Shown piece by piece: positions 1,130 to 47,570 of a stretch of 64,000 nt of DNA. Below the pieces are notes generated by a model that was not told the DNA's origin, did no database searches, and saw only the letters and a program-made list of their open reading frames with translations. Numbering within the stretch: position 1 is the stretch's first letter; the number at the start of each line of letters is the position of its first letter. The stretch spans positions 192,001 to 256,000 of the forward strand of contig JAGVWC010000010.1 in assembly GCA_018304465.1 (NCBI GenBank), in the 5' to 3' direction. This DNA is from Candidatus Iainarchaeum sp. (GTDB lineage Archaea > Iainarchaeota > Iainarchaeia > Iainarchaeales > JAGVWC01). Both the position numbers and the translations under genes were made by a program.

Positions 1130-1618
1130 ATGCGTGCCCTAATTCTTTCAATGAAAAATATTCCAAGTGCTCGGTCTGTGATCGAGTTTCGTTTCATCGC
1201 CCAAGTCCCACCAACACTTGTCGACAAATTTATGAAAGACACCTACGCACCACTCAAATACCACACCCTAATCAAGAACTCGGACAGAGTTTTGGGCGCT
1301 TTTCACAACGAGCAAATGATCGGATTTATTAGCGCAAATGGACACCAAGTCACCGCATTGTACGTCGAACCGCAATATCGCAGGTTAAAAATCGGGTCAC
1401 GGTTAATCCGAAGATTAGGAACAACCTTGAGGAAAAACGGCTTTGATGGGTTTCATCTCGCTGAAATGACCGGCTATGCGCAAGTGACCGTAAAAAAAGA
1501 AAGTGAGCGATTAGCAATGAGAAAAAAAATGGGAACAGGAAAAGAAATCAGAATTTATCCCTCGGGCATCGGGTTTCGAGGAGACATTCGCTTTCCGCGA
1601 AAAACCCCCCGAAAATAG
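1130..1618 (+). CDS. GNAT family N-acetyltransferase
   Basis: Motif A: LYVEPQYRRLKIGSRLI; MIGFI strand. Basic C-terminus PRKTPRK. Confidence 0.75.
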   Translation: MRALILSMKNIPSARSVIEFRFIAQVPPTLVDKFMKDTYAPLKYHTLIKNSDRVLGAFHNEQMIGFISANGHQVTALYVEPQYRRLKIGSRLIRRLGTTLRKNGFDGFHLAEMTGYAQVTVKKESERLAMRKKMGTGKEIRIYPSGIGFRGDIRFPRKTPRK

Positions 1619-1755
1619 CCTGGGTGTGAACTGATTAATTGAACGCAAAGGGGGTACTTTGTACCTGAAGTTCAAAACAAACCCCAAAGTTTCGGTTGCT
1701 TTGCTTACTGAATACATTATGCAGAAACTTGCATAAACGGTTTTCAGCATTTCGA

Positions 1756-2613
1756 CTATTTTTTTGCCCTTAAATATTCTTTTGCGATTGCGATTCCGAG
1801 TTGATAAGTGAGCCTGCGCACTAAGGCGCTTTTTTTGTTTGCTTCTTTGGGGCTCATGCGCAGTTCTGCTGGAGGATTATATTTGATTTCACTCGGGTGC
1901 TTTTGTGCGTATCGCTGGGCGTGGCCGAGCGGCATGGCTTTTGTTCCAGAGCGAGTCTTTACCCATCCAAGATTAGCGGATTGGATTATATCGGGGCGAT
2001 CAAGGTTGGAGTAATATTTTGTATAAAATAAGCGATTGTTCGTATTCGCAAAATGTGCCATGCTGTAAAGTACCATGGGGGACATAGGCCAGCTATGCAA
2101 CTCCCCTGTTTCCGGGTCTCGCCAAGGTAGGCTTACAGCCCCGTCTTCTTCAGGTTTGATGCTTTGAATTACTTTACGTTCATCTGCAACTGCAAACGCT
2201 TTCTTAATCCGTTTAAGTGTTTTCAGCCTATCGAACATATCCACTATTCGAACATGATGACTTTCAGGTGTAAGCGCTTTCGAAACGTGACGAACGAGCG
2301 TTGGAAATTCTTCATTGGTTCCTCCTTGAAAGGGAGTTACGAGAAATGTCACTCTGGCTTCGGGGGCAACCACGTGTAAGATTCCTTTAATTAATTCGCC
2401 TGAAGAGGCGGCCGTTGTGAGCGGAAAAAAGAAATGGTATCCGCTTCCATCCGAACTTCTTACCATCTTTTTGACACGTTCAACGGATTGCAATCCTCTT
2501 TTCATGTCTTCGGGTCGAGGAGCATAATCTGGACGAAAAAGGTGCTTGCGGTTCCGTTCAAAGAAGTCCGCATAGTTTTTTGGTTCCCTACGAAAACGCT
2601 TGCCTCGCGCCAT
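1756..2613 (-). CDS. Hypothetical basic protein, possibly degenerate phosphoribosyltransferase-like
   Basis: 285 aa ORF with Arg-rich N-terminus. VRIVDMFDRLKTL weakly resembles a PRPP loop. Confidence 0.6.
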   Translation of the reverse strand: MARGKRFRREPKNYADFFERNRKHLFRPDYAPRPEDMKRGLQSVERVKKMVRSSDGSGYHFFFPLTTAASSGELIKGILHVVAPEARVTFLVTPFQGGTNEEFPTLVRHVSKALTPESHHVRIVDMFDRLKTLKRIKKAFAVADERKVIQSIKPEEDGAVSLPWRDPETGELHSWPMSPMVLYSMAHFANTNNRLFYTKYYSNLDRPDIIQSANLGWVKTRSGTKAMPLGHAQRYAQKHPSEIKYNPPAELRMSPKEANKKSALVRRLTYQLGIAIAKEYLRAKK

Positions 2614-2817
2614 GAAATACTATCTAAATTTTAGCTATATAAAGCCATTGTTCAAGAAACTTCGGGTTTTTGATTATCCAAATGACTCCCCTCCCAGGGG
2701 GTTGTTTAACCACGGCAGATTGTTATTGGCGGCGATTGATTGTTAGATCAATTGGTAATTACACCAATTTAGCCCTACAAAAATCGCACACACCAAAAAT
2801 TGTGGGAATAATTCGTT

Positions 2818-3228
2818 TCAAAGCAAATTAGTGATTTCATCCAGAAAATTTTTCGGCGTCACAATCCGAATCCTGTTGTATTCACCGATTTTGAGCAGGT
2901 GCTTGTCACCAGTGACAATAAAATCGGCATGTGCTTCGAGAGCGGCTTCGATGATCTTGTTGTCCGCCGGATCGTCTTTCACGATTTCCAGACGACGCCC
3001 GGGATTGACTACTTCGTGAAAAGAGAGAACTTTGCTTACCTTTGCTTCGATCTCGGATTTTGTTTGCTTGAAATCACGATCCAGAATAAACGAATACTCA
3101 TCCATTATTTCCGGAGAAGTAAAGCACCGGATTTTTTGTTCAATGGCAAGCAAAGTAATGTGATTGGAAGCACCGGGCCAGAACGTAGCCGAAATTAACA
3201 CGTTCGTATCAAGAACAACTGCCATCAT
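2818..3228 (-). CDS. PIN-domain (VapC-like) toxin
   Basis: VVLDTNVLIS...DDPADNKIIEAA...ADFIVTGDKHLL. Start overlaps the antitoxin stop (ATGA). Confidence 0.92.
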   Translation of the reverse strand: MMAVVLDTNVLISATFWPGASNHITLLAIEQKIRCFTSPEIMDEYSFILDRDFKQTKSEIEAKVSKVLSFHEVVNPGRRLEIVKDDPADNKIIEAALEAHADFIVTGDKHLLKIGEYNRIRIVTPKNFLDEITNLL

Positions 3229-3503
3229 TCTTTTATTCCTCGGCCCTTGTGAATCATCCGAACGACATCTTTTTGCTTGATTCCCAATTTCTTGACTTGC
3301 TTGTTTCCTTCGGTCACGGTTTTTTTCCAATCTGCCAAAATCTCTTCCCGCGAAGGCGCTTTCACTCGCTTTAGCAACAACGTATCGCCGGTCCGAACCA
3401 CGGCAAAGGTTTCTCCTTCCTGCAAGTTCATTTCATCCCGCAAATCCTGCGGAATAACTACCTGGCCACGAGAACTCATCTTGGTCAATTCAACATCCGC
3501 CAT
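3225..3503 (-). CDS. AbrB/MazE/SpoVT-family antitoxin
   Basis: TKMSSRGQVVIPQDLRDEMNLQEGE; GGAGGTGA SD upstream. Start trimmed to exclude the tRNA. Confidence 0.9.
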   Translation of the reverse strand: MADVELTKMSSRGQVVIPQDLRDEMNLQEGETFAVVRTGDTLLLKRVKAPSREEILADWKKTVTEGNKQVKKLGIKQKDVVRMIHKGRGIKE

Positions 3504-3573
3504 TTCATTCACCTCCAATAAACTACCGTCACAAACACTTAATAAAATTATCTTATTGTAAGAAAGTAAGATT

Positions 3574-3658
3574 CGCAGAGGGGGAGATTTGAACTCCCGT
3601 GGGGTTTCCCCCAAGAGGTTAGCAACCTCTCGCCGTAACCAGGCTGGGCCACCTCTGC
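3574..3658 (-). tRNA. tRNA-Ser(GCT)
   Basis: GCAGAGG acceptor stem, AGAGG-TTGCTAA-CCTCT anticodon arm, long variable arm, GTTCAAATC T-loop, G discriminator. Confidence 0.95.
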
Positions 3659-3762
3659 AGCAAACAAAATTCAATCAGAAAATGCCATATAAATCAGCAT
3701 TGCCAAGGTTAAAAAAACCATTCGGATAATTCAACAGAAAAAAGACTATTCGGACGCTGTTT

Positions 3763-4265
3763 CTACGACCTCAACCCATTTCGACACCGTTCAAGCGTCA
3801 GAACACGCACCAGCAACACACGTTCTAAAGTACGAAAAAGACGCTTCCAAGCAAATCGGAAGTTTTCACTGCAAGTAAACAGAACCGATCGTTCAACGAA
3901 ATCACCCGGCGTCAATTCGCCAATCGCGTTTGGAGCACTTGGATCCGAAATACCGTCCGGACACGTAATCACGGGAACCGTTTTATCCGAAGGTTCCTCG
4001 CCAGCGGGAACAATACAACCCGGCCACCAGCCCTTGCCAATAAGCTGGATTCCCATGCAACGATTGTAAAAAATCGAAGCGTTGGAATCATTGAACGCCT
4101 TCATTTCAATCGTTCAACGACAGTATAAACGGATTTGGTGGTTTCGATTCGAACGTCATCGAAAGGCACCACCGGCGCGAGAGAAGAATCCGAAACACAA
4201 CCCGCCAACACAAAAACGAGAACCAATAATCCAATCCCCTTTGAATCCCTGCACAACAAAAGCAA
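3763..4265 (-). pseudogene. Frameshifted lipoprotein gene
   Basis: N-part has lipobox LVLVFVLAGC and runs ...TTKSVYTVVE. It continues in another frame as IEMKAFNDSNASIFYNRC... One extra base near 4110 restores a single ORF. Confidence 0.55.
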
Positions 4266-4353
4266 ACACGCTATAATAAACTATTCTAAAACAGATCACC
4301 GGCAATCACGGGCGCCTGCAAAGCAACTTATATTCAGTGAATATGGTCTTAGC

Positions 4354-4662
4354 ATGTGGAAGGAAAAGCAAAAATTTGTAGATTATGTCCGTGAACGACG
4401 ACGCCGATATAAACGCCAACTCCTTGAATTAAAAGGAGGAAAATGTGAAAAATGTGGTTATTCAAACTGCGAAGCAGCTTTAGAATTCCACCATATCGAT
4501 GAAAAAGAAGACCGTATTTCAAGATTATATAACCGTGGATGGAAACGATTGGTTGGCGAGATTGACAAAACGATTTTGTTATGCGCGAATTGTCATCGAG
4601 AACAACATGCAAAAGAACAGGATATTGGTAAAAAAGCAGTTTATCCAATTGAAACGCAATAG
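4354..4662 (+). CDS. HNH endonuclease (free-standing)
   Basis: CEKCGY..CEAALEFHH...LLCANCHREQH: zinc-binding HNH motif. Confidence 0.88.
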   Translation: MWKEKQKFVDYVRERRRRYKRQLLELKGGKCEKCGYSNCEAALEFHHIDEKEDRISRLYNRGWKRLVGEIDKTILLCANCHREQHAKEQDIGKKAVYPIETQ

Positions 4663-4730
4663 ATTCAAGATGATGTTTAAATACCTTATCTTGCCCAAAT
4701 TTAGAAACAGCAAACCAAATTTTCACATTA

Positions 4731-7287: not shown

Positions 7288-8337
7288 ATGAAACCACGGG
7301 TAAAAAAAGAAGCGGTTGCCTACGCAAAACGAATCGAAGAAAAATACGGAGTCACCACCAGCGTCATCGCCCAAACCAACCAAGGCCTTCCGTGGGTCAC
7401 CTCGGGTGACGGAATCACGATTTTTGTCATCGAACCCCGAAAAGACAATTTTAAAATCCTCAAACAACTCGCCGCTGATCTGGAAGTATCCTCCTTTGGC
7501 CAGCCGCGCCATTTGGTTCAGGGAATGCATCCCGTCTCCGAAATGGTTGCAATCACCCGCGAAAACCCCAGTCTCCTCCGAAGCGGCCTTGGCGCCGCCG
7601 GTTTTTTAGTCCCGTTCCTAACCCACACCGAAATATTCGGAAAGTACCAGGACGAATTCCGCCGCGCGTTCCAGACCGCCTTCGGACCCGCGCTTGTAAA
7701 CGAACTCCGCGAACGCAAAGAACGGTTAAAAAAATTCCAACAACAAAGGCTTCAACGCGTCAGAATGGCGAGGACGGCCGAACAAAAACAACTGCTGGAC
7801 CAATTTGAAGCACTCGCCCAACGCGTCCACGCCGAACAACCAACCGTATTAATCGCCCTGGACCGGTCCGGTCGACCCGTCGGAACAACGGTTCAACAAA
7901 TACTCAAAGAAGCCTACGGAGAACGCATTCCCCTGTTTTTCATCAATCCCGAAATGCTTCGGAATACAACGCTTCCAAAACAAACGCTTCGAAAACTTCT
8001 CGAAACCCAGCACCCGCACCTATGCCGACACCTTCCAGACGCCACAGTGATGATTCTCGACGATCAAATCGCCACCGGGAAAGCGGCAGGAGCCGTCGGA
8101 GAACTGCTCAACCAATTCCACCCCAAAAAAGTAAAAACAGAGGTCTTATCCGAGTATCCCAAAACCCATCCCCCCAGCTGGTGGTACCAAAAACCGTTTC
8201 TTATTCAAAGCGCGAAAGGTCGCCTGATCTCAAAACGCATCCGGGCAAATCAAAAACTCCGCCGAAAATCCGCGACTATCCGAAAAAAGTTCGGTAAAAT
8301 CGCACGCACCCTCACGATCCGTCTTCGGAAAAAATAA
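7288..8337 (+). CDS. Basic hypothetical protein with C-terminal phosphoribosyltransferase-like domain
   Basis: IALDRSGRP and VMILDDQIATGKA resemble type I PRTase motifs. Lys/Arg-rich termini. Confidence 0.65.
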   Translation: MKPRVKKEAVAYAKRIEEKYGVTTSVIAQTNQGLPWVTSGDGITIFVIEPRKDNFKILKQLAADLEVSSFGQPRHLVQGMHPVSEMVAITRENPSLLRSGLGAAGFLVPFLTHTEIFGKYQDEFRRAFQTAFGPALVNELRERKERLKKFQQQRLQRVRMARTAEQKQLLDQFEALAQRVHAEQPTVLIALDRSGRPVGTTVQQILKEAYGERIPLFFINPEMLRNTTLPKQTLRKLLETQHPHLCRHLPDATVMILDDQIATGKAAGAVGELLNQFHPKKVKTEVLSEYPKTHPPSWWYQKPFLIQSAKGRLISKRIRANQKLRRKSATIRKKFGKIARTLTIRLRKK

Positions 8338-14099: not shown

Positions 14100-14367
14100 A
14101 AAAAACGAATCCGACTGGATCGCAACCACACCCGTCACCCAAGTCTTACCGCTTAAAGACAACAGCACGGTCGACGTCGCGATCGTCGGCGACAAGGGGG
14201 CACAAAACCCGACAATTCGACGAAACCGAAAAACTATTCAACTGTCCCGTCACAACAGCCATTTTACCGCCATCGGCAAAGTCGTCAACGGACCGGCAAA
14301 CGAGGATCTTTTCCACATTGACTTAGAAAAAAACCCACCTCATCACAGAGGGACCAAAGGAGGATGA
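14100..14367 (+). pseudogene. Relic of YhfW-like FAD oxidoreductase/Rieske fusion with large internal deletion
   Basis: Frame A: ESDWIATTPVTQVLPLKDNSTVDVAIVG. Then FDETEKLFNCP-(frameshift)-HNSHFTAIGKVVNGPANEDL, matching the Rieske CPCHGSxF...GPA end. Confidence 0.7.
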
Positions 14368-14374
14368 AAAAAAT

Positions 14375-14587: not shown

Positions 14588-14652
14588 ACCCAAGTGTCCC
14601 AAAAAACATGGAAAAAACCCAGACGGAAAAAAACTTCCGCTGGGCGCTTTTT

Positions 14653-18802: not shown

Positions 18803-19663
18803 TCAGTTATTGGTGGGAAAACGCGTTTTCCGAACCTGGACCGGCGCGGGAACAACCCATTTTTCGCGGATACGACGCACGGATTCACGGCGAAAACGCG
18901 GTTCGGCTCCATGCCGGTCACGAAACTGGTCAATAATCCAAATCCGCGTGATCCGATCCCCCTTCACGTTCGCGATAATATTAGAGGGAATAAAATCAGG
19001 CGTCGGATATTCCAGCCCCGCTTGCGTGAACAAATGAATCCACTGGTTACTGCCAAGCGAAATCTGCCGGCCTAACGCCGAAATCGCAACCTTAACCGCC
19101 TCGAAGTGAGAAGGCGTCAACTTGTCCGCGACCACGAGGCGTTCACCCGACAAATCGCGCATCACCAAAAAAGGACCTTTGATCGTGATGGCTTCCGGAA
19201 TCCGAATTTCAAAATCCGCTTTGGGAAGACGACCCGTACTGGACAAGTATTTCATCATCAAATTAAGGCTATACAAAGTACGCGCCTGGTTTTGCGGATT
19301 GCTTCGAGCGCCTTTCTTGAATTTTTTCACGGCAAGCGAATTCCATTTGATTCCGCTGGAAGAAACAAACGGTTCTTTTGGAACAAATCTTCGCACTTCT
19401 CCTTCCCCGCGACCGCCAAGTCGCGGTAAACGGGAAAAAAATCGAGTCGTAAAAAAACCAGGAAAATCTTGCTCTAATGTTTGCCGGTTCTTGACCCAAC
19501 GCGCTTCCCGGCCCACCCAATCCGCCGCCGGAACAGGCGCCAAACCCCGACCCAATCGAGAACCCAAACCTTTCGGACGCCGGTTTTGGATTGCCGCACG
19601 CACTTCTTTTGGTCGACGATGCCACGGCGCCGGCTTTGCATGGGAATCGTATCGTTTACGCAT
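18803..19663 (-). CDS. Basic protein with protein-kinase-like fold motifs
   Basis: LGGRGEGEV (Gly loop), LAVKKF, DFIPSNII (DxxxxN), WIIDQ. Arg-rich termini. Confidence 0.6.
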   Translation of the reverse strand: MRKRYDSHAKPAPWHRRPKEVRAAIQNRRPKGLGSRLGRGLAPVPAADWVGREARWVKNRQTLEQDFPGFFTTRFFSRLPRLGGRGEGEVRRFVPKEPFVSSSGIKWNSLAVKKFKKGARSNPQNQARTLYSLNLMMKYLSSTGRLPKADFEIRIPEAITIKGPFLVMRDLSGERLVVADKLTPSHFEAVKVAISALGRQISLGSNQWIHLFTQAGLEYPTPDFIPSNIIANVKGDRITRIWIIDQFRDRHGAEPRFRRESVRRIREKWVVPAPVQVRKTRFPTNN

Positions 19664-20198
19664 GTTCCAACGCCTTCCGCTGTTCGTCCAAAATCATGTC
19701 CAACGCATCCAAAAGTTTCAGAATCTGGTCGCGTCGGTTGATTGCGGTTTCAAAATCAAGATCCAATTCCAGTTTCTTGTTCACGTGCACGATCAGGTTT
19801 CGAAGCGAACTGGCCGCCTTCAAATCCTCCTTGAAATCGCTTCGCGAGGAATACAACGATTGAAGCGAAAACAACACGGGGTCATCGACTAAAACGCGGA
19901 TATAATCATTCAAGTGTTTTTCGTTCAGTTCCCTCACCGGGTTATGCGACCATTCCTGCACCCGATACAACCGGGATTCAAGTTCGGTTAACAACACGAA
20001 AAAAATAATGCGCAGCGGGCGCTTTAATACCATATGGCGCTTCACGATTCTTGCATCCGGCAACACTAAACAATCCGAATCCGAAAACAAGGTCAGCGCG
20101 TCCCACACGGGAAGCGAATCCGGCACGTTCATGCATCGGTCTTTGGGATGCGAATGACCCGGTTTTGCGACCAACGACACGGGAAGAACCGAAGACAT
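19656..20198 (-). CDS. Hypothetical protein with HEPN-like RxxxxH motif
   Basis: LTELESRL...LRNLIVH in a helical C-terminal domain. Confidence 0.55.
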   Translation of the reverse strand: MSSVLPVSLVAKPGHSHPKDRCMNVPDSLPVWDALTLFSDSDCLVLPDARIVKRHMVLKRPLRIIFFVLLTELESRLYRVQEWSHNPVRELNEKHLNDYIRVLVDDPVLFSLQSLYSSRSDFKEDLKAASSLRNLIVHVNKKLELDLDFETAINRRDQILKLLDALDMILDEQRKALEHA

Positions 20199-20380
20199 AT
20201 TGCTTAAAAAAACCTTGAACTCGGGTCCGCGCATGAAACATACCAGTGAACCAAAACACGTAAAAAAACCACCTAACCCTAAAAAAAGGAAAAACGACCC
20301 GGGCCCCACAGGCAAATACAGCGCTGACGAAAAAAACATCTTTTTTTAAAGGTATGAATTTCATACTTATATGTGGTTCA

Positions 20381-21075: not shown

Positions 21076-22041
21076 TTATCGCAAAAACCGCCGAAAACGC
21101 CCAAAATCCTTGGGATACTCTTCGCACAATTTTTGCAATTCCCGGTCCCGCACAAAAACAAAGGGTTTGTCCTTGTAAAAATTCCAATAATCCGAAAGCA
21201 GTCCTTTGCGCCCAAGGTAATGCAACGTCAAGCCCTGCGCAATGTCATGCGAAAACATTTCCCCTACTTCGTGCTCGGCAATCGCCCGCCGAAACCGCGC
21301 TGGAAGCACAGCCGGATCCGAATTCAGCCACAATACCCCGTGAATATACTTTCCCAACGCCGGCAGCTTGGCGCCTTCTTTTGGCGGAAGCGATTTCGAA
21401 TCCACCAAATACACCGGCACTCCCCGATGCAAAAAAACCTGGCGACCCGCGTTTCGGTTTTTTTCGATTTCCGAAATCGGAACCGGCTCCGGACTCGATT
21501 CAAGATAAAAAAGCTCCGGACGCGTCACCCGCTTTGCGTTCTCGGGAAAAAACCGATCCAACAAACCCGCCAGGTAACGAAACCCTTTTCGCTTGACGAG
21601 TTCGACCGCGGCGGCTTCGCGCACACTGCGATGCGAATCAAACACCGCGTGCTCAATCGTCCGAAGTGGAACACGCGTGGGTGAACGCGTCAAATACCGG
21701 ATCAGTTCAAAACGGTTTTGATGAACATCGTCGGTTCGAACCCGCTCGGATAACAATTTGGAATAACCCCGCGGACGCACCAAGGACAACACATCATAGG
21801 CGTGAGATCGCCAATCCGAATCCGGACTATTCGCGGCCCGAAACAACGCCCGTGTCACATCGTTTCTCCGCGCGATTTTCAAATAACGGGCGGTCGAAGC
21901 CTCGGACAAATAACGGTCAAAAAAAAGTTTTTTCAACGCGACCCGTTGCCGGACGTTTCGGATTCCCCCAAAAATATCCGAATGATCCGAAAACACCTGT
22001 TTGGCGGAAGGTTTTCGAAAATGCCAATGAAGCTGCGCCAT
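21076..22041 (-). CDS. HEAT-repeat-like hypothetical protein with C-terminal HExxE motif
   Basis: DSDWRSHAYDVL, DSHRSVREAAAVEL; IAEHEVGE; Arg-rich C-terminus. Confidence 0.6.
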   Translation of the reverse strand: MAQLHWHFRKPSAKQVFSDHSDIFGGIRNVRQRVALKKLFFDRYLSEASTARYLKIARRNDVTRALFRAANSPDSDWRSHAYDVLSLVRPRGYSKLLSERVRTDDVHQNRFELIRYLTRSPTRVPLRTIEHAVFDSHRSVREAAAVELVKRKGFRYLAGLLDRFFPENAKRVTRPELFYLESSPEPVPISEIEKNRNAGRQVFLHRGVPVYLVDSKSLPPKEGAKLPALGKYIHGVLWLNSDPAVLPARFRRAIAEHEVGEMFSHDIAQGLTLHYLGRKGLLSDYWNFYKDKPFVFVRDRELQKLCEEYPKDFGRFRRFLR

Positions 22042-22122
22042 TCCAAAAAAAGGGTTTTCCATTGTATTTAAAGCCTTACTTTGCACAAAAATCATTAGTA
22101 TAACAAAAAAAATGGGTCCGGA

Positions 22123-23619
22123 ATGAAACCAACCAAAAACGATTTTTCCCTTGAACTAGCCGCATACTTGTCCGAAAAAGACTTTGTCTACGGACCCGAA
22201 CCCGAATTATACGGCGGCATCGCGGGATTTTATACCTACGGACCGCTTGGAAAACGATTGAAAAACAACATTGAAACCGTCATTCGCAAAGCGTTTAACG
22301 TCAACGGTTTTTTTGAAATCGAATACCCCTTAATTGCGCCCGCCGCGGTGTGGAAAGCCTCGGGTCATTTGGCCAATTTTTCGGACCCGACCATCGAATG
22401 CTCCAAATGCAACTCCAGTTTTCGCGCGGACAAACTCGTCGAAGAAGCCACGGGAACCAGCGACGCGGGCCACTTGACCGACGAACAACTCGTCAACCAG
22501 ATCCGCGAACACGACCTCAAATGCTTAAACTGCAAAGGACGCTTTAACCTCGAAATCAAACGATACTCCTTGATGCTCAAAACCACGATCGGATCCGACA
22601 TCGAAGCGTATAACCGACCCGAAACCGCGACCACGACCTACTTGCCGTTCAAACATTACCTGAATTTTTTCCGAAACCGTTTGCCCTTCACGGTGTTCCA
22701 AATCGGAAAAGCGTTTCGAAACGAAATTTCTCCGCGCCAACACTTGCTTCGCATGCGCGAATTCACCCAAGCCGAAAGCCAATTCTTTATCGCGCCCGAA
22801 TCCAAACACACGTGGGAAAAATTCTCCAAAATCGAAAACGAAACACTACCGTTTTGGACCGAAGACGCCCAAAAAAAAGGTCAACCCCTTCAAATAATCA
22901 AACTCAAAGACGCGTTGGCCAAAAAAATCCTCAAAAACAAGGCCTACGCGTGGAACCTGTGGTTATCGTATCACATTTTCACGGAAATGGGAATACCCGT
23001 CCAAAAAATCCGGTTACGCCAGCATTATTCGGATGAACGCGCGTTTTACTCCGACGACACCTGGGACCTGGAAGTCGAACTCAACGCGTTTGGCTGGACC
23101 GAACTTGCCGGAATATCCGACCGAACCGATTACGACCTCAAACAACACGCCAAACACTCCAACCAAAAACTCGTGGCACGCTCGCCTGAAAACGTGGAAT
23201 TCGTTCCGCACGTCATCGAAATCGCGTTCGGAGTCGACCGACCCGTATTCGCGTTATGCGACTTGTTTTATTCCAAACGCGAACAAGACGAAAAAAGAAC
23301 CATTCTCGCGTTTCCACCCAAAATGGCTCCGATTCAAGTCGCGGTTTTTCCCCTGGTGAAGAAAGACGGTTTGGATGACAAAGCCGAACAACTCTACCGA
23401 TCGCTTGAAAACCAGTTCCTATGCTATTTTGATGATTCCGGAAGCATCGGAAAACGATACTCCCGCATGGACGCCGTTGGAACCCCGTACTGCATTACCA
23501 TCGACTACGATTCCATGCAACACCAGGACGTTACGGTCCGCGAACGCGATTCCATGAAACAAGAACGCGTCAAACTATCCGAACTCGAAAAATACTTATT
23601 TCAAAGGCTGCAAAAATGA
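22123..23619 (+). CDS. glyS: Glycine--tRNA ligase (archaeal/eukaryotic type)
   Basis: YTYGPLG, RPETA, QIGKAFRNEISPR..LLRMREFTQAE, GSIGKRYSRMDAVGTP. Confidence 0.96.
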   Translation: MKPTKNDFSLELAAYLSEKDFVYGPEPELYGGIAGFYTYGPLGKRLKNNIETVIRKAFNVNGFFEIEYPLIAPAAVWKASGHLANFSDPTIECSKCNSSFRADKLVEEATGTSDAGHLTDEQLVNQIREHDLKCLNCKGRFNLEIKRYSLMLKTTIGSDIEAYNRPETATTTYLPFKHYLNFFRNRLPFTVFQIGKAFRNEISPRQHLLRMREFTQAESQFFIAPESKHTWEKFSKIENETLPFWTEDAQKKGQPLQIIKLKDALAKKILKNKAYAWNLWLSYHIFTEMGIPVQKIRLRQHYSDERAFYSDDTWDLEVELNAFGWTELAGISDRTDYDLKQHAKHSNQKLVARSPENVEFVPHVIEIAFGVDRPVFALCDLFYSKREQDEKRTILAFPPKMAPIQVAVFPLVKKDGLDDKAEQLYRSLENQFLCYFDDSGSIGKRYSRMDAVGTPYCITIDYDSMQHQDVTVRERDSMKQERVKLSELEKYLFQRLQK

Positions 23620-24995
23620 CGGACTTTTTAGAACTGAGAAAAAAACTCCTCGAACGCACCAAAAAACAAGTGCAAATCGAATTCGGAGAAAACGAAATCC
23701 ACTTGATCCGCGCCAGCAACGCGTTATCCGATCTGGAAGCCGTATACAACCTGCTGTACGAACACACCAAAGAATGGTATCACTATCACTTTCCCGAACT
23801 CGAAGGCCTTTTGGACGATCCTGCGTTGTACCTAAAACTCGTGTACGAACTCGGTGAACGATCGAAAATGACCGACGACGCGGTCGCCAAAATCGAAACC
23901 GACATTGAAAAAGCCAAAACCATCGCCCAAAAAGCGGTTTTTTCCATCGGAGCCGACATTCCCGACGAAACACTCGCCGAAATCCGGCTCATCGCGCTCA
24001 ACGCATTAAATATCAAACAAGAAATGGACGCATTGGAAAAACTCCTTGAAAAACAACTCAAACAAATCGCCCCCAACTTCTCGATCATCGCCGGCACCCA
24101 AATCGCGGGCCGCATGATCAGCCACACCGGAAGCATCCAAAAACTCGCGATGCTACCCGCGTCCTCCATTCAAGTGCTTGGCGCCGAAAAAGCCTTGTTT
24201 CGATTCTTAAAAAACCGAAAAAACCTTCCGCCCAAACACGGTTACTTGTTCGCCCACGGATTCGTCCGACAATTACCCGCCGAAAAACGCGGTCGCATGG
24301 CGCGCACGCTTGCAAGCAAACTCTCGATCGCGATTCGAACCGATTACTACAACAAAAACGAAAACGTCGCCGGAAAAATCCAAGAACAACTCGCTCGCCG
24401 CGTCGAAGAACTCAAAAACGCGAAAACCAAAAACAAACCCATCCGAAAATTCGACGCGCCACGACCAATGTTCCAGCGACCCGAACGATTCCAACCCCGC
24501 GATTCGAATGAACGAAAAGAAAGATACCCACCCAAAAGCGATTATCGTCCCAAAGGCAATTATCCGCCGAAAAGAGACTACAAACCCCGCGAAAATTACA
24601 GACCCGCAGGCGAATACAAACCCAGAGACAATTTCACCCCAAACACCGATTACAAACCCCGCGGAAATTTTTCACCCAACACGGATTACAAACCCAAAGG
24701 AGACTACAAACCCAAAAGCGACTACAAACCGCGGAACAAACCATTCCAAAAAGACCGATTTCGACCCCAACGCTCGGGTCGACGCGAAGAAAAACGGGAT
24801 TTCGGAACACAACCCGTCGAAAAAAAGTTTTCCTCGTTTACCGTAGAAAAATCCACGTTCCAACCCTTGCCACCCGGACAAGCCCCCAAATTCCGAAAAT
24901 TTAACCAGCCGCGCAGCAAATTCTCAACCCGAAACCGATCCGAAGCCGGGTCGCAAGGACGCCCCAACAAATTCAGAAAGAGAAAATCCAGATGA
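23616..24995 (+). CDS. nop5: Box C/D sRNP protein Nop5 (Nop56/58) with long low-complexity C-terminal tail
   Basis: EWY.YHFPEL, APN, LPASSIQVLGAEKALF, PKHG, GRMARTLASK. Confidence 0.92.
   Translation: MTDFLELRKKLLERTKKQVQIEFGENEIHLIRASNALSDLEAVYNLLYEHTKEWYHYHFPELEGLLDDPALYLKLVYELGERSKMTDDAVAKIETDIEKAKTIAQKAVFSIGADIPDETLAEIRLIALNALNIKQEMDALEKLLEKQLKQIAPNFSIIAGTQIAGRMISHTGSIQKLAMLPASSIQVLGAEKALFRFLKNRKNLPPKHGYLFAHGFVRQLPAEKRGRMARTLASKLSIAIRTDYYNKNENVAGKIQEQLARRVEELKNAKTKNKPIRKFDAPRPMFQRPERFQPRDSNERKERYPPKSDYRPKGNYPPKRDYKPRENYRPAGEYKPRDNFTPNTDYKPRGNFSPNTDYKPKGDYKPKSDYKPRNKPFQKDRFRPQRSGRREEKRDFGTQPVEKKFSSFTVEKSTFQPLPPGQAPKFRKFNQPRSKFSTRNRSEAGSQGRPNKFRKRKSR
24525..24738 (+). repeat. Coding hexapeptide (18-nt) tandem repeats, (D/N)YKP(K/R)x, in the Nop5 tail
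   Basis: YPPKSDYRPKGNYPPKRDYKPRENYRPAGEYKPRDNFTPNTDYKPRGNFSPNTDYKPKGDYKPKSDYKPR; recurrent GA(T/C)TACAAACCC. Confidence 0.85.
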
Positions 24996-27012: not shown

Positions 27013-27756
27013 ATGTCAAGGAACGCACGACGAATCCGCAGACAAAAAGCGCTTGAAGCACGCGGTTCTTTTAACGCAAACAAACCAGTCAGGAGTGTTA
27101 CTCCGAAAGAAGCCGCTCTTCGTGCCTTGAACGAAAGCAACTTGGATTTTGAAAAAGCGATTGAAAAAATCGCCAAAAAAAGGGCTGTCCGTCGCAAGCA
27201 GCTTTCGCGAGTCCCAGCAACGGCCATAAGCAAATTCAGGGACGTTATCGAGTACGAGCGCGCTACGATCGCATTGGAACAGCAAGCGATCTGGGAGCTT
27301 GAACGGCTAAGGAAAATGGCCCCGGATTCGTGGATCAGAAGCGCAAGACAATTGTACAACCGCGATTTAATCAAATCAGTGCAGATTGATGAATCCCCGT
27401 TGGAAACCGCGGCTGTCCTGTTAACTATTTCAGCCGTTTCCCGCAAAGGAGATGCGAATAGCCTGACTAGCGGCTTACGAGCAAGCCGGTTACCCCCAAG
27501 CGCAACAACAAGTCTAAAGAATGCGATCGCCCTTGCAAGAGCAGGACCCTCATTAATCCGAACAAAAATTGCGGACGCGCAAAAAAAGCGCGCGAACAAA
27601 AAAGACCTTGAAGTTCTTGAGCGCTTATTGCAACACGCTGAAAGGACAGCAAAAATACTCGAAGAAATCGACTCAAAACCACCCGCAGAAAAAGAACGAC
27701 GAGTAACTGAACTCTTGAAAAAATTCAATCGGTGGGTTATGCCGAATCCAAAATAG
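27013..27756 (+). CDS. Basic helical hypothetical protein
   Basis: 247 aa, Arg-rich N-terminus MSRNARRIRRQK, TATA-like TTTAAT upstream. Confidence 0.6.
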   Translation: MSRNARRIRRQKALEARGSFNANKPVRSVTPKEAALRALNESNLDFEKAIEKIAKKRAVRRKQLSRVPATAISKFRDVIEYERATIALEQQAIWELERLRKMAPDSWIRSARQLYNRDLIKSVQIDESPLETAAVLLTISAVSRKGDANSLTSGLRASRLPPSATTSLKNAIALARAGPSLIRTKIADAQKKRANKKDLEVLERLLQHAERTAKILEEIDSKPPAEKERRVTELLKKFNRWVMPNPK

Positions 27757-33517: not shown

Positions 33518-34168
33518 TCACGCGGATGGGCCCGCGCGCCCATATTTGAAAAAATCGTTGATTGAATGAATCCCGATATCCCACGCATCCAAACCTTCCG
33601 CATACGTCTTTCTCTTGGCACTCATTTTTGACTGGTGTTTTGCAAGTTCATTGACCGACAAAGCACGCACAATATCCCAAAATGGATCCGCAAGCCACCA
33701 GCGCGAACCATTCCAAAATACAACCTGTGAATGATCCAATATACGCGTAAATTTTGCGGGCACGCCATGAATACGAAGAACTGTGCACAACACAAGACAC
33801 TCATCCAAACAACCGGCTATCCCATGTTTTTTGAACGCATCCGCATCCCCTTTCAAAATAGTCTTTGTCCGGACGATATCATCCGCCGAGCGTTTCGCAT
33901 ACAGCTTCTTCAAAACAGCATCCGATACCTCCACAGCATCAAAAGAATCCAACCGAAGAATAACATCCTCAACGATTTCCTTTGGCGAACCATGAAATTG
34001 AGAGGCAAATTTGATCAAGGCTTTCGTCACACGTGTCTGCCGGCCCGACCGCAACCACTCCCGAAAAACCACGGGTTCGATGCGTTTTCTAACGACAGAT
34101 CCGGGTTTTTTAGACACCAAACCCCGAACAAGCTTTGTTCGCCGAAAACCGTTTCTTATCCGACGCAT
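33518..34168 (-). CDS. Basic transglutaminase-like protein
   Basis: GCLDECLV..TVLR..GVPA, HSQV, WWLADP (Cys-His-Asp triad pattern). Arg-rich N-terminus. Confidence 0.65.
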   Translation of the reverse strand: MRRIRNGFRRTKLVRGLVSKKPGSVVRKRIEPVVFREWLRSGRQTRVTKALIKFASQFHGSPKEIVEDVILRLDSFDAVEVSDAVLKKLYAKRSADDIVRTKTILKGDADAFKKHGIAGCLDECLVLCTVLRIHGVPAKFTRILDHSQVVFWNGSRWWLADPFWDIVRALSVNELAKHQSKMSAKRKTYAEGLDAWDIGIHSINDFFKYGRAGPSA

Positions 34169-34233
34169 ACCACATAACAACCACGAAAACCATTAAAAAA
34201 ACCCGCCTGCATTCAATATATGAATCAGTTCGT

Positions 34234-37504: not shown

Positions 37505-37505
37505 A

Positions 37506-40105: not shown

Positions 40106-40675
40106 ATGAATGAAAAAAGCAAATGGGAGAACGGCAAACCAAAGATCGCGATCATTCTCGGAAGCCGCAAAGACGAACCGACAGTCGTCGCATCCAAATT
40201 ATTTCACATACTCAAAAACGCTGGAATCGGATACGAATACTCCATCATTTCCTCCGATCGAAATCCGGAAGAGTTACGAACGTATTGCAAAAGCCTGGAC
40301 ACGGAAATAATCGCCGTTATCGCGGTTGCAGGCCTCATTCCCAATCTTCCGATTGTTACAAAGTCCTGGGCACCCCACATACCGGTTATTTCGGTTCCCC
40401 TTACGGGAGACGGATACACCCCGAATGACACCCTGCTTGCAGCCGCGAGTACCCCTGGAGAACGACCCATTATTGTCAGTGGAATCGGAAAAAACGGCCT
40501 TGAAAAAGCAGGGTACCTCGCCGTGGAAATCGCCGGCGTAAAACACGCCCACATTCGAAAAAAATATGCTTCTTTGCAGGAAATTAAAAGTGCCGAAATC
40601 AAAACAACGCATCCCCGGCCAAAATCAAAAAAAGGAAGTGAAACAAATGGATCCGCGAGACCTCATTTCAGTTAA
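40106..40675 (+). CDS. AIR carboxylase (PurE)-like protein, divergent
   Basis: IAIILGS..D; IISSDRNP in place of SAHRTP; IAVAG...LP; PVISVP. Confidence 0.75.
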   Translation: MNEKSKWENGKPKIAIILGSRKDEPTVVASKLFHILKNAGIGYEYSIISSDRNPEELRTYCKSLDTEIIAVIAVAGLIPNLPIVTKSWAPHIPVISVPLTGDGYTPNDTLLAAASTPGERPIIVSGIGKNGLEKAGYLAVEIAGVKHAHIRKKYASLQEIKSAEIKTTHPRPKSKKGSETNGSARPHFS

Positions 40676-41687
40676 CGTAAACGTTTTCGAAGGGGACATT
40701 CTTCTGTGCGACTCGTACGTGTCGGATGTAGCGCCAGAATTCGTGAAAAAATTATCGACCCATAAAAAAACGTATTCTTTCACTCCAGAACTGACGCATA
40801 GCGACATATTGGGATTCAAGCTGTGCACCATCTTTCGACTGGGCCGAATTAGTCGATTGACGGTTTTTATCAAATCCGGCTCTCCGCATTCGTTGCAGAT
40901 TCCGCTGATTGTCCAAGAAGCCGCCGACGATACCGGATTCGATCGATCGAAAATCGAATACTTTGTCTGGGAAAAAGGCGAAATGATCCCTGTTTCTAAC
41001 GAAGCAATCCGCAAAGCCCGGCACTTACACGAAATCGAGCGACTGCTTGCCTTTGAACGACTGCAAAAAACGGTCGAAATCCTGCGAAAAGAATGCCGCA
41101 ATGACCAGCAGGAAACCTTCGAAACCATCCTGGAACACTTTGTTGAAGAAACCAACGAGCTAAAAGAAGGGATCAAAAACAAAGATACGGCCAATACTCA
41201 GGAAGAACTCGGCGACATCTTGTTCAATGTTTTCTTATTCGCCAAAATCGCGCAAGAAGAAAACCAATTCGATATGGAAAAACTGCTGGATACGGTGAAT
41301 GAAAAAATGGTGAAACGGCACGATCAAATATTTCCAAACAGAAACGTAGTGATATTGGTTTCGCCCATTCATGGAAAAGGAGTCTTTGCATTGCAGGACA
41401 TCAAGGCCGGAACGATCGCTGACAAATGGCAGGCGTACGCACAAAACCAAAACCCACGCACAGATAAAACCGTTGACCAGTTCGTGAATCATTCGTGCAA
41501 ACCCAACGCCTACGCCAAAGACTCCGTCGACATCGCACTCCGCGACATTAAAGCAGGCGAAGAAATCACCTGTGACTACACCAAAGAAAACGGAATACAC
41601 CCTAAGTTCAAGTGCAATTGCCAATGCAAAAATTGCAGAGGAGCGATTTACACCAATTTTCAAAGAATCGGACCCGAAAAGGATTGA
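40647..41687 (+). CDS. Fusion: unknown N-terminal domain + MazG pyrophosphohydrolase + SET/post-SET domain
   Basis: MazG: EETNEL...EELGDIL...EKMVKRH. SET: SPIHGKGVFA, FVNHSCKPN, ALRDIKAGEEITCDY, CNCQCKNCRG. Confidence 0.85.
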   Translation: MDPRDLISVNVNVFEGDILLCDSYVSDVAPEFVKKLSTHKKTYSFTPELTHSDILGFKLCTIFRLGRISRLTVFIKSGSPHSLQIPLIVQEAADDTGFDRSKIEYFVWEKGEMIPVSNEAIRKARHLHEIERLLAFERLQKTVEILRKECRNDQQETFETILEHFVEETNELKEGIKNKDTANTQEELGDILFNVFLFAKIAQEENQFDMEKLLDTVNEKMVKRHDQIFPNRNVVILVSPIHGKGVFALQDIKAGTIADKWQAYAQNQNPRTDKTVDQFVNHSCKPNAYAKDSVDIALRDIKAGEEITCDYTKENGIHPKFKCNCQCKNCRGAIYTNFQRIGPEKD

Positions 41688-43086: not shown

Positions 43087-43608
43087 ATGAACCGAATCCA
43101 CCAGCCACCAGGCCCCCGCCGCACAAAACGGATACTCAAAAGTGCAAAACGACAACAAAAACAATTCCACGCCCGACAAATAACCGGGTTTTCACGCGCA
43201 AAAATTTCGACCCGGTATCTGGGCAACAAAACCCCCGACGACAAAAAAATCATCCAACGCCTATGGCAAAAAAACCTCAATTCCAAAAATTCCGCGCTGG
43301 CTCTGAAAAAAAGACATTTGATCGAATACGAACGACTAAGAGAAGTGTTTTTCGCTCAAGGCGAATGGAAACAGATTTACACTACTGATACGCCTCTCCG
43401 CCAAATCATGGAATACGTCCGAACCCACTATCAAAACCACGGCACCATTCCCGCCCAGCCCAAAATCGCCACCCACACCGGCTTGTCCCTTCAGGTGGTC
43501 CGCCAACGCATTCGCCGGCAATACCAACGCGCGTTTGTCCGCGTACGACGAAAAACATCCCACGGAAAACGGAAAACAAAACCGATTTCCGACAAACGCC
43601 GCGAATGA
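43087..43608 (+). CDS. Basic hypothetical protein with HTH-like segment
   Basis: Arg/Lys-rich; PAQPKIATHTGLSLQVVR. Confidence 0.55.
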   Translation: MNRIHQPPGPRRTKRILKSAKRQQKQFHARQITGFSRAKISTRYLGNKTPDDKKIIQRLWQKNLNSKNSALALKKRHLIEYERLREVFFAQGEWKQIYTTDTPLRQIMEYVRTHYQNHGTIPAQPKIATHTGLSLQVVRQRIRRQYQRAFVRVRRKTSHGKRKTKPISDKRRE

Positions 43609-44318: not shown

Positions 44319-44918
44319 ATGGGATTAAAACGCGTTGGAAAAAAACCCTTGTCCCGGGTCCGTGAAGGAATATTCCAAACCGTGGACATCGGAAGCGGTT
44401 TTGGCGAATACATTTCAAGACAAGCCGAACGATTTCCGCATCGACGATACGCCGTGGTGGATCCGCGGTACGCGCGAACCAGCGGATTCGGACAAATTCA
44501 CCTCGAATCCGAATTCAAACGACTTGGAATTCACATGCATCCCGGCACCGGCGCATCGTTTTTCGAAGAAATGGCACGACGCGGATGGAAAACCCACGCC
44601 ATCAATTTCGATATGCCGTTAGGATCGGAAGCCGAATTGTCCCGCATACTGGACCTGGCACCCCACACCTTGTTTCCCAACGGAAAAATATTCGTCGCCA
44701 CCGAACGGTTAACCGCACTGGATCACTTCATCAAAATCGCGCGCGAAAAAGGTTTTTCGGTCACCGAACGAAAATCCATGCCTCCCGCCCAGGCTCGACA
44801 ACGCACCGCGTATTCACACCGCCATTCCAACAACCCCCAACGACCGATTCGACGCCTCGAAATCACGTTTGGATTAAAGAAAGCGTTTCCGGACAAAAAA
44901 CAAAGGCAAAAAAGATAA
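44319..44918 (+). CDS. Basic class I SAM methyltransferase-like protein (tRNA m7G MTase-like motifs)
   Basis: VDIGSGFG, YAVVDP, LFPNGKIFVATE; basic termini. Confidence 0.6.
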   Translation: MGLKRVGKKPLSRVREGIFQTVDIGSGFGEYISRQAERFPHRRYAVVDPRYARTSGFGQIHLESEFKRLGIHMHPGTGASFFEEMARRGWKTHAINFDMPLGSEAELSRILDLAPHTLFPNGKIFVATERLTALDHFIKIAREKGFSVTERKSMPPAQARQRTAYSHRHSNNPQRPIRRLEITFGLKKAFPDKKQRQKR

Positions 44919-46019: not shown

Positions 46020-46092
46020 AAATCCCGATCAAAACCCGAACCCATAAAAAACCCACGGACCTCATAATACTTAGAAAGGAAAACGACCCCGT

Positions 46093-46443
46093 ATGGACGA
46101 CGAATATTTCGAAGACGAGCCCCAGCCCAAAAAACGGCAACTGCCCATTCAAACCAACCCCTTGTTTTACCTCGCCATCGGACTCGCCTTGGGATTCACC
46201 TTATCCGTGTTCGTTTCCCCCGAATTCTTGGAAAGCTTTTCAAACCCCCAAAAATTCGACGGACAAATCACGGACATCAACAAATGGGTCTCCGACGACT
46301 TGCGCGTCAACCTCGTGATATTACGCATCAATGACTCGAACGTCGCGACCTGCATCGACGGCGACGCGTGCCTCGGATACCAACCCGGCGACACCGTTCA
46401 CGTCACTTGTTTTGGCATCGAATGCCGCGCGACGAAACGCTAA
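46093..46443 (+). CDS. Small single-pass membrane protein
   Basis: One TM helix followed by a small Cys-containing domain. Confidence 0.65.
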   Translation: MDDEYFEDEPQPKKRQLPIQTNPLFYLAIGLALGFTLSVFVSPEFLESFSNPQKFDGQITDINKWVSDDLRVNLVILRINDSNVATCIDGDACLGYQPGDTVHVTCFGIECRATKR

Positions 46444-46487
46444 ACCCAATCCGAAAACTTAATATGGGCCTGGTTCTAAACCATACT

Positions 46488-47570
46488 ATGCCGCGACGCA
46501 TTTCTCCCCGCGTTCAACGACTATTCCAACAATACGCGGCCGCCCGACACCAAAGCGGAGGACGCAAAATCGGAATTGGTCAATTTCAACTCATTGTAAC
46601 GGCACCCAAAAACGAATCCCTTAGAGCCATCGGAAAACGCGCGCACACCACGCGCGCCACCGCGCGAAACGTACTGGTTACCACCCGTCTGCGAAACAAA
46701 GACCGGATCCAAGGCATCGGAATCGCCGCCAACACGCGTCTACGAAGCGTGGAAACCATGGCCAACGGCACCGTCCTGCAATTCATCCAAGACCAACTGG
46801 CCCACACGGACAAAACCATGCGCCAAATCGCGATCAAAGCCGGCGTCAATCCGTCCACCGTCAAAAAAATAAACAAAAAAGAAAAAATCCGAAAAAACCC
46901 CCGAAGCGTCGGAGGAAAAATAGCCGCGAAACAACGCTTGGAACCCAAATGGGACGCCATCCGCGCTTTGCTCCAACAAAAAACACCCGAAGGAAACTTC
47001 CGATTCACCCAAAACGAAGTCATTTCCCGGTTAGCCCGACAAGGAATCCGAACAAATCACGTGGTCGTCGGAAGAATCGCCCGCCACGTTCGAAGCGAAC
47101 AAGAACGAAATGAAATGCGCGGACACGCGGTTTCTCCATCCAACCGCCGGAGGGCATTCCTCGAAAAAGCCCTGCGATTCACCCGTTCTCCCATCGCACG
47201 CATCACGCAACGTGCCATTACCCGCGAAACCCGACAAGGCCGTCCCGCCACCCAAACCGCCATCCGAAACGCGATCGTGAACGTAAAACGGGAACGCGGA
47301 TTAAAAGGAATGCGATTCCAAGAAAGCAAAACCGCCACCCAAAAAGTGGTTCGGTACCTCATGCCCACTGGAACCCCCCGATTACCCATTCCCTGGGAAG
47401 AAACCGCCAAAAAACTCGAAGTTCCGATTTATTTCCTGCAAAAAACAATCGTCAACCAACTGCTTTTACGAAAACCCCTGCACGACATCGTTCTCGCAGA
47501 ACGAACGGGACTACGCCGCGAAAAAATCCGTCAAATCCGCCTCGAACTCGCCAACGAAAACAACCGATAA
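46488..47570 (+). CDS. Very basic multi-HTH hypothetical protein
   Basis: TMRQIAIKAGVNPSTV; LAERTGLRREKIRQI. BRE/TATA (CGAAAACTTAATA) about 25 nt upstream. Confidence 0.65.
   Translation: MPRRISPRVQRLFQQYAAARHQSGGRKIGIGQFQLIVTAPKNESLRAIGKRAHTTRATARNVLVTTRLRNKDRIQGIGIAANTRLRSVETMANGTVLQFIQDQLAHTDKTMRQIAIKAGVNPSTVKKINKKEKIRKNPRSVGGKIAAKQRLEPKWDAIRALLQQKTPEGNFRFTQNEVISRLARQGIRTNHVVVGRIARHVRSEQERNEMRGHAVSPSNRRRAFLEKALRFTRSPIARITQRAITRETRQGRPATQTAIRNAIVNVKRERGLKGMRFQESKTATQKVVRYLMPTGTPRLPIPWEETAKKLEVPIYFLQKTIVNQLLLRKPLHDIVLAERTGLRREKIRQIRLELANENNR

Follow-up and report, generated by a model that had tools for sequence, protein, structure and literature searches.

Prokaryotic ORFans and accessory genes are short, of high isoelectric point (pI) and of atypical composition, and substrates of type IV secretion carry positively charged C-terminal translocation signals. 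Lys/Arg-rich motifs of the nuclear localization signal (NLS) type are reported for archaeal ribosomal and nucleic-acid-binding proteins, where solved ribosomes have been used to map the motifs to contacts with RNA (Melnikov et al., bioRxiv 10.1101/671966). Here we analyse ten genes for proteins with Arg- and Lys-rich ends in a stretch of 64,000 nucleotides (the window; positions 192001-256000 of contig C15 in genome G000, an assembly of 1.246 Mb in 15 contigs that is 92 % complete). The window encodes the archaeal markers Nop56/58, fibrillarin, NMD3 and deoxyhypusine synthase, and the source of the ten genes is consistent with a small, Iainarchaeota-like DPANN archaeon. For its glycyl-tRNA synthetase, the one gene with which this placement was checked, the nearest named loci belong to 'Candidatus ainarchaeum sp.' and another archaeon (63 % identity), with Woese-, Pace- and Nanoarchaeota next. 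A first-pass annotation had described the ten as a dispersed family of orphan, enzyme-like proteins with basic extensions on unrelated cores, and had read the extensions as a common targeting signal, based on charge, that would direct the proteins into a host cell or to nucleic acids or ribosomes. The observation was confirmed in part and its interpretation is supported in part. The ten are unrelated, mostly lineage-restricted proteins that are basic along the whole chain; they probably have an electrostatic affinity for polyanions, and the reading as effectors marked by their ends is unsupported.

We scored the net charge of the terminal 20 residues (N20 and C20) and called an end basic at N20 of at least +5 or C20 of at least +6, in open reading frames (ORFs) of at least 100 amino acids. 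In a shuffle test, the residues of each protein were permuted 5000 times and the terminal charge was compared with the protein's own composition. The ten genes, referred to below by their first coordinate in the window, are as follows.

1130..1618, + strand: GNAT-type acetyltransferase, 162 amino acids, pI 10.8; C-terminal end mildly basic (C20 +5, shuffle p = 0.16)
1756..2613, - strand: basic protein, 285 amino acids, pI 10.1; starts MARGKRFRR
7288..8337, + strand: N-terminal domain without a family, then a type-I phosphoribosyltransferase (PRTase) domain and a basic C-terminal tail of about 35 amino acids (C20 +9, shuffle p = 0.0012)
18803..19663, - strand: atypical protein-kinase-like enzyme with a RIO/Bud32/APH-like fold, as judged from a model and residues; basic N- and C-terminal segments
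21076..22095, - strand: HEAT-repeat protein with a C-terminal domain carrying an H-E-x-G-E motif; ends not basic (N20 0, C20 +3)
27013..27756, + strand: ORFan, 247 amino acids, pI 10.8; starts MSRNARRIRRQK
33518..34168, - strand: small transglutaminase-like protein with a Cys-His-Asp triad and a polybasic N-terminal segment of about 35 amino acids (N20 +9, shuffle p = 0.0024)
43087..43608, + strand: small, very basic protein, 173 amino acids, pI 11.7, net charge +34; weak helix-turn-helix (HTH)-like match only
44319..44918, + strand: TrmB-like class-I S-adenosylmethionine-dependent methyltransferase, as judged from a family profile against PDB; basic start and end motifs
46488..47570, + strand: Arg-rich protein, 360 amino acids, pI 11.9, net charge +53; weak HTH-like matches

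All ten ORFs are present where they had been placed, and the peptide ends quoted for them are correct and in position. Two of the quoted starts lie inside longer frames: MRRIRNGFRR begins at an ATG at 34168 within the TTG-started ORF 33518-34180(-), and MPRRISPR at an ATG at 46488 within ORF 46368-47570(+); in both cases the ATG is the likely start. TIRLRKK is the C-terminal end of 7288-8337(+).

Charge along the chain and at the ends

The ten proteins have a pI of 10.1-12.0 and a net charge of +18 to +60. Lys and Arg together make up 18-25 % of their residues, and Arg alone accounts for 8.9-15 %, compared with 2.3-9.4 % in 16 neighbours. When terminal charge was set against each protein's own composition, only the C-terminal end of 7288 and the N-terminal end of 33518 stood out; the other eight proteins gave p > 0.05, and 21076, for which a basic end had also been claimed, has none by any cut-off. 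The cores are indeed unrelated, as the first-pass annotation held, but with whole chains basic and two of ten ends passing the shuffle test, the extensions are mostly not distinct.

The proteome background proved to be close. Genome ORF sets were obtained by crude longest-ORF calling with the most upstream start (n = 1213 at a minimum of 80 amino acids and n = 1139 at a minimum of 100). Basic ends were found on 13 of 74 ORFs in the window and on 176 of 1139 in the genome; the window is not enriched relative to the rest of the genome (163/1065; Fisher p = 0.62), and eight of the ten ends are explained by composition. Besides Nop56/58 and a MazG-SET protein, the 13 include two proteins that are membrane-bound or secreted, and at least two of the 13 are probably spurious. 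Among the 1213 ORFs, 266 have a pI of at least 10 and 198 have at least 9 % Arg, and many ORFs of the genome begin with MPR, MAR, MSR or MPK followed by runs of Lys and Arg. In 805 codon-typical genes, Lys and Arg make up 23 % of the last five residues and 17 % of the first five, compared with 11 % of the interior. That the ends of the ten look like tails is mainly due to the basic character of the entire chain, and to a proteome-wide excess of basic residues at ends relative to interiors. Across the genome, 32 N-terminal and 47 C-terminal ends of 1139 pass the shuffle test at p <= 0.01, against an expectation of about 11.

Neighbouring housekeeping enzymes had been described as lacking such tails, which holds only in part. 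The MazG pyrophosphohydrolase-SET fusion (40566-41687, + strand) has an N20 of +6, thymidylate kinase has a pI of 10.25, and the clearest comparator is the following gene.

23616..24995, + strand: Nop56/58, housekeeping; Pfam Nop 2e-58 over residues 37-264 of 459; C20 +7, and +10 over the last 30 residues

Beyond the Nop domain, this protein carries a tail of about 190 residues (24420-24995, + strand) made of imperfect repeats rich in Lys, Arg, Pro and Tyr, of the type D-Y-K-P-R/K-G-N, which resembles the charged tails of eukaryotic Nop56/58. Basic tails are thus not confined to orphan proteins. A second, stand-alone SET protein is encoded at G000:C15:146933-147604(-), and both SET proteins are basic-ended.

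The ten do not form a family. An all-versus-all blastp of the 1213 ORFs (E < 1e-5) covered nine of the candidates and gave no paralogue for eight of them. The remaining one, 46368-47570, had two, neither of them among the ten; 27013 fell outside the set, its place being taken by a longer antisense ORF. Their folds differ as well. Neither could we find a signal common to the ends. Searches for k-mers in the first and last 45 residues of 114 basic N-terminal and 63 basic C-terminal ends returned only words containing Lys or Arg. A Gly-Gly junction was not enriched at basic N-terminal ends (11/114 versus 156/952) or at basic C-terminal ends (9/63 versus 127/1003), and the basic ends showed no positional Arg pattern. 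Proline follows the start Met in 20 of 123 basic N-terminal ends, compared with 61 of 1016 others, and is far from universal. The Pfam families T4SS-DNA_transf (VirD4/TraG) and CagE_TrbE_VirB (VirB4) had no match in the genome, 92 % complete as it is, and AAA_10 had one partial match at 28.2 bits; three secretion families were tried in all, and archaeal transfer machines may be of other kinds. With no motif or junction, eight of ten ends not distinct and no VirD4/TraG or VirB4 family, the proposed shared signal for transfer into a host found no support.

Lineage restriction, strand bias and the meaning of the charge

Basic ends go with lineage-restricted proteins that lack a family. We compared 171 of the 176 basic-ended ORFs (five that crossed the ends of 20-kb pieces were dropped) with 150 random ORFs without basic ends, and counted a Pfam family at E <= 1e-5. 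No family was found for 109 of the 171 basic-ended ORFs, compared with 52 of the 150 controls (p = 2e-7); conversely, 62 of 171 (29/85 and 33/86) carried one, compared with 98 of 150. The annotated basic-ended set holds ten ribosomal proteins, RNA polymerase A', Nop56/58, tRNA-splicing endonuclease, SBDS, Trm56, eRF1, SerRS, topoisomerase I, UvrA, Smc and GINS, together with membrane proteins and ordinary enzymes. The trait is order-wide and modestly above comparators: 55 of 390 ORFs in G018 and 54 of 374 in G032 are basic-ended (order relatives, 400 kb each, single-contig and with weak strand skew), and the same caller gave 10.8 % of 721 ORFs at bacterial loci and 9.7 % of 329 at loci of other DPANN archaea.

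The ten are themselves mostly lineage-restricted. At E <= 1e-3, they found matches in 0 to 30 of 150 genomes of the order (40 genomes were searched for 7288), whereas the fibrillarin control was found in 148 of 150. By gene, 27013 was matched in none of the 150, 18803 in one, 43087 in four, 21076 (partial homologues) and 46488 (one strong match) in five each, 1130 (weak matches) and 1756 (partial homologues) in seven each, 33518 in 20 and 44319 in 30; 7288 was matched in 3 of 40 relatives. A protein homologue search with the transglutaminase-like query returned just three matches and was judged too insensitive for such divergent families. Homologues keep the net positive charge and the basic ends, also when they come from other families of the order and are 26-49 % identical. 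Among orthologues, Lys/Arg-rich ends are kept in the tails of the PRTase-like protein, both ends of the kinase-like protein, the N-terminal ends of the transglutaminase-like protein and the motifs of the methyltransferase. Since homologues keep the charge, it is likely to serve some function.

Most likely the ten candidates are real genes whose codon usage is weakly adapted. A strand-specific codon model ranked the frame of each of them first of six, with per-codon likelihoods of -3.73 to -4.25, compared with -3.68 to -3.85 in ten housekeeping controls, and margins of 0.13-0.33 compared with 0.25-0.52. Five of the ten had been skipped by a first codon-usage gene caller; the strand-specific model ruled out wrong frames for these five, and the cause is atypical codon usage. 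G+C content at third codon positions (GC3) is 0.42-0.54 in the ten and 0.50-0.65 in neighbours. Overall G+C is 0.46-0.53 in nine of them, near the genome value of 0.47-0.50, and 0.446 in 1130. We rejected the idea that the ORFs are spurious for nine candidates since each has homologues; 27013 is backed only by its ORF length and a small codon margin of 0.13, with its frame ranked first of six.

We suggest that the conserved basic segments would act as non-specific electrostatic tethers to RNA, the ribosome or DNA, and possibly to acidic lipids, much as the basic extensions of ribosomal and nucleic-acid-binding proteins do. Weak constraint and strand-biased mutation would exaggerate the trait in fast-evolving genes, and the recurrence of Lys/Arg-rich ends would then reflect an order-wide tendency, strand-biased mutation and a high share of family-less genes. 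By analogy, association with RNA, ribosomes or DNA is plausibly the likeliest function, and two of the core types among the ten, the RIO/Bud32-like kinase and the TrmB-like methyltransferase, are RNA-linked.

Several points weigh against this proposal. For every one of the ten, the tether role is argued by analogy, and the transglutaminase-like, PRTase, GNAT and HEAT cores have no obvious role with nucleic acids. In the annotated basic-ended set, 26 of 62 proteins are related to nucleic acids or ribosomes, compared with 25 of 98 controls. This enrichment favours the proposal but is modest (p = 0.04), depends on how the author sorted the Pfam names by hand, and owes most to ribosomal proteins. 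The overall excess is small and may leave little to explain, at about 15 % against about 10 % in bacterial and other DPANN comparator loci that all surround glycyl-tRNA synthetase genes, are possibly housekeeping-rich and are not whole genomes. Finally, over-extended starts and spurious antisense ORFs (likely examples in the window are 26412-26978 and 14343-14693) inflate the N-terminal counts, which are upper bounds; the C-terminal counts are sturdier.

Strand asymmetry in this genome is very strong for an archaeon, with a GC skew of about -0.13 to -0.18 and an AT skew of +0.1 to +0.2 on the + strand of the window. It spans hundreds of kilobases (for example, on contigs C6 and C15 of G000), is much weaker in two order relatives and visibly shifts amino-acid composition. 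The third-position GC skew is -0.41 for genes on the A/C-rich strand and +0.20 for those on the other; because it differs by coding strand, the bias follows the DNA strand and not transcription. When coded on the A/C-rich strand, ORFs are basic-ended twice as often (69/309) as when coded on the other (34/310; p = 1.5e-4), and random ORFs of the base composition of the window would already be Arg-rich and net positive (8.7 % Arg, Lys plus Arg 11-14 %, net +0.05 to +0.075 per residue). These figures agree with a mutational contribution to the trait and, taken further, favour a neutral origin, in which the charge has no function and arises as weak selection on young or fast genes lets them drift towards random-codon composition under strand bias; the lower GC3 and poorer codon fit of the candidates relative to their neighbours, and the patchy or unique occurrence of most of them in the order, point the same way. 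We nevertheless consider a purely neutral origin unlikely, as the 18-25 % Lys plus Arg of the ten exceeds the random expectation, the charge is kept in homologues as divergent as those described above, and both the kinase-like and the transglutaminase-like family retain their catalytic residues. Moreover, the share of basic-ended ORFs is nearly equal, about 14 %, in two relatives whose skew is weak (0.03 and -0.06), and strand skew was rejected as the main cause on these grounds.

That the ten are horizontally gained cargo of mobile elements or viruses, an origin that would also account for their basic, DNA-affine character, seems to us more doubtful still. Seven of them were not found in the three genomes of the same family, their distribution in the order is patchy and their codon usage atypical, members of the kinase-like family are few and scattered, with bacterial clusters among its Atlas neighbours, and 1130 and 1756 lie in a stretch of low G+C next to genes for tRNA-Ser and a PIN protein. 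The genes are nonetheless single and dispersed among housekeeping genes, with no integrase or repeat noticed nearby (repeats were not searched for), and the G+C of nine of the ten is near that of the genome. Searches of PHROGs, NCBIfam and PADLOC gave nothing beyond GNAT, PRTase and weak HTH matches. No phage or defence family matched at a sound score in PHROG or PADLOC, the PHROG matches being a generic acetyltransferase and a weak HTH, and scans of viral contigs with three of the ten (46368, 18803 and 27013) found no relatives.

That the basic ends serve all ten as one signal for export or translocation, with the proteins acting as effectors inside a host, is highly improbable, though it might apply to single genes. 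In its favour, DPANN archaea are mostly host-dependent, the proteins are lineage-restricted and fast-evolving, the transglutaminase-like family conserves terminal charge without sequence, and Atlas clusters near 18803 are auto-named 'SteC family' (score 0.95; a lead only, with no alignment or Pfam family). Against it, the ends share no motif or junction beyond their Lys/Arg/Pro-rich composition, eight of the ten do not exceed the remainder of their chain in basicity, ribosomal proteins, RNA polymerase and Nop56/58 have similar ends, as do tRNA enzymes and membrane proteins, the frequency of such ends in the window is that of the genome, no VirD4/TraG or VirB4 family was matched, the organism has no known host, and the fold of 18803 is nearest to RIO/Bud32/APH-type housekeeping or small-molecule kinases.

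The individual proteins and their surroundings

The kinase-like assignment of 18803 was borne out by structure prediction. An AlphaFold2 (AF2) model built from a 15-sequence alignment, with a mean predicted local distance difference test (pLDDT) score of 84.8, has a two-lobed kinase fold. In a VIA comparison, residues about 57-277 matched PsiK, PRPK/Bud32 and RIO1/2/3 at Z 10.0-10.7; 139 of 1000 chains reached a Z of at least 8, all of those listed being kinases, and the Foldseek probability was 1.00. K113, D223, N228, D245 and Q246 are invariant in the 15 sequences. From known kinase motifs, we take K113 to be the beta-3 Lys, D223 and N228 to be catalytic and D245 to bind metal, and the family may be catalytically intact, judging from these residues. 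It is rare, with 19 representatives among 1.84e9 proteins, and was assigned to a family neither by Pfam at E <= 0.1 nor by NCBIfam at E <= 0.01; the nearest Atlas feature clusters include bacterial ones. Both ends are basic in the orthologue from genome G024, and the N-terminal ends appear basic by eye in the 15-sequence alignment, where they were not counted.

Compared with RIO1, RIO2, RIOK3 and Bud32/PRPK, 18803 shares the kinase fold (root-mean-square deviation 3.8-4.7 A over 164-199 aligned residues). It differs in having 11-17 % identity to the solved chains, a basic N-terminal segment of its own, a rare occurrence without a family-model match, and a pairing with the gene upstream. Because APH-type small-molecule kinases score equally well for the model, we leave its substrate class wide. 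The upstream gene is as follows.

19656..20339, - strand: partner gene upstream of 18803, overlapping it by 8 bases; seen from the ORF layout, with the pair kept in G024

No family was found for the partner in Pfam, PHROG, NCBIfam or PADLOC. An R-x4-H motif is present in the protein from both the window genome and G024 and may recall that of HEPN RNases. The two genes may form a two-gene conflict or regulatory module.

For 33518, the transglutaminase-like assignment stands as far as the triad goes: C120, H146 and D161 are invariant and in conserved order in six sequences. The Pfam Transglut_core match remained below the cut-off (E 0.021, 15.5 bits versus 23). No column before L39 (window-protein position) is invariant in the family, and N20 is +5 to +9 in five of the six ORFs, the sixth being over-extended upstream; in these sequences, the N-terminal segment keeps its charge and not its sequence. 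The PRTase assignment of 7288 was upheld by Pfam Pribosyltran over residues 167-292 (1.4e-10, 41.1 bits versus a cut-off of 26.3). The homologues, 32-38 % identical and present in 3 of 40 relatives, likewise end in basic tails. A PRTase-like identity had also been suggested for 1756 and was not sustained: the protein has no Pfam, PHROG, NCBIfam or PADLOC family, its best structural TM score in the Atlas is 0.40 and to other folds, and its family profile matched only HPRT in PDB, at E 0.48 over 30 residues.

Three further assignments agree with family or profile searches. The GNAT identity of 1130 is supported by Pfam Acetyltransf_10/1/7 (E 3e-7, over the cut-off). For 21076, the family profile matched alphaRep and HEAT chains over several stretches (E 4e-30 to 1e-9), with the single sequence scoring 23.5 versus a cut-off of 27.7 for Pfam HEAT_2; H275, E276, G278 and E279 are invariant in four sequences. 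The methyltransferase 44319 is TrmB-like, its profile matching tRNA (guanine-N7) methyltransferase at E 2.8e-5; the matches to 1yzh, 2fca and 7nyb (E 2.8e-5 and 1.1e-4, about positions 32-194) speak for the fold and not for orthology. The single sequence gave E 0.0032 for Pfam Methyltransf_4 (17.4 versus a cut-off of 24 bits), and the start and end motifs are kept in the family.

HTH matches to 46488 and 43087 are weak (LacI 0.033, PHROG repressor 6.9e-4, MarA 0.2; E 0.03-0.7 across the matches of 46488). For 43087, the best was a MarR-type PHROG at 9.4e-4, and its homologues have start and end motifs in common. Family profiles of both proteins against PDB gave nothing sound. The two paralogues of 46488 lie at G000:C7:95155-96225(-) and C15:5119-6048(+); one clear orthologue was found among the 150 genomes, and the alignment begins near the ATG at 46488.

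The ORFan 27013 had no homologue in the 150 order genomes or in viral contigs and no family in Pfam, PHROG, NCBIfam or PADLOC. Opposite it runs an open antisense ORF, 26955-27728(-), which at 257 amino acids is longer than the sense ORF. A similar antisense frame of 353 amino acids, 29450-30511(+), lies opposite 29420-30874. The translations of these two antisense frames are Arg/His/Lys-rich or Ser/Cys/Phe-rich junk.

Around 1130 and 1756, positions 1-4700 form a stretch of lower G+C (0.44) that also holds a PIN-domain gene (2818-3330), a tRNA-Ser gene (3573-3659) and ORF 4135-4662 with Cys/His-rich, HNH-like motifs; this stretch may be a small island beside a tRNA gene. Elsewhere, at 52000-60000, G+C falls to 0.39, the GC skew is interrupted and several ORFs are family-less, and two KaiC-like ATPase genes lie at 59457-61156. 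The ORF 9234-11807(-) encodes an 857-amino-acid membrane protein of odd architecture, with two Hint/pretoxin-HINT modules, a Gly-rich linker and two Tim44-like domains. Outside the window, G000:C7:2749-3333(-) and C7:3992-4570(-) encode neighbouring basic-ended proteins that match Pfam Sigma70_r2 over the cut-off (E 4.8e-6 and 6.2e-8), which is unexpected in an archaeon.

Comparison with known systems

We read the pattern as a general compositional trait of lineage-restricted proteins and not as a new effector system, and it matters little in the form in which it was first filed. It does carry two cautions: Arg/Lys-rich ends recur by composition alone in strand-biased genomes rich in family-less genes, and long antisense ORFs can mislead gene callers. 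The rare kinase-like family with its partner, the transglutaminase-like family and the strand asymmetry are by-products of possible specialist interest. A bolder proposal, which we hold to be improbable, is that terminal polybasic segments on dozens of order-restricted families of enzymes and regulators in the Iainarchaeales are an electrostatic localization code; it could draw on the conservation of charge without sequence in the transglutaminase-like family and on the N-terminal ends of the kinase-like family as judged by eye. Such a code would gather accessory enzymes on ribosomes, the nucleoid or an acidic membrane; their transfer to a partner cell would be the least likely outcome.

Among known systems, type IV secretion signals resemble the ends described here in being net positive, non-hydrophobic termini on unrelated proteins. 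They differ in that the charge here spans the whole protein and comes without a positional Arg pattern or a coupling-protein or VirB4 family. With high-pI ORFans the ten share low codon adaptation, patchiness, the lack of a family and a high pI. Unlike those, several of the ten have intact enzyme cores and homologues across families of the order, and because of these homologues they are not mere gene-call noise. With respect to the NLS-type extensions, the carriers here differ in being mostly enzymes or proteins without an assigned function that are basic throughout, and any RNA contacts of theirs are putative. What the two have in common are short Lys/Arg-rich segments, often terminal, on archaeal cytoplasmic proteins, and in this genome ten ribosomal proteins, Nop56/58 and RNA polymerase A' share the basic-ended class with the candidates.

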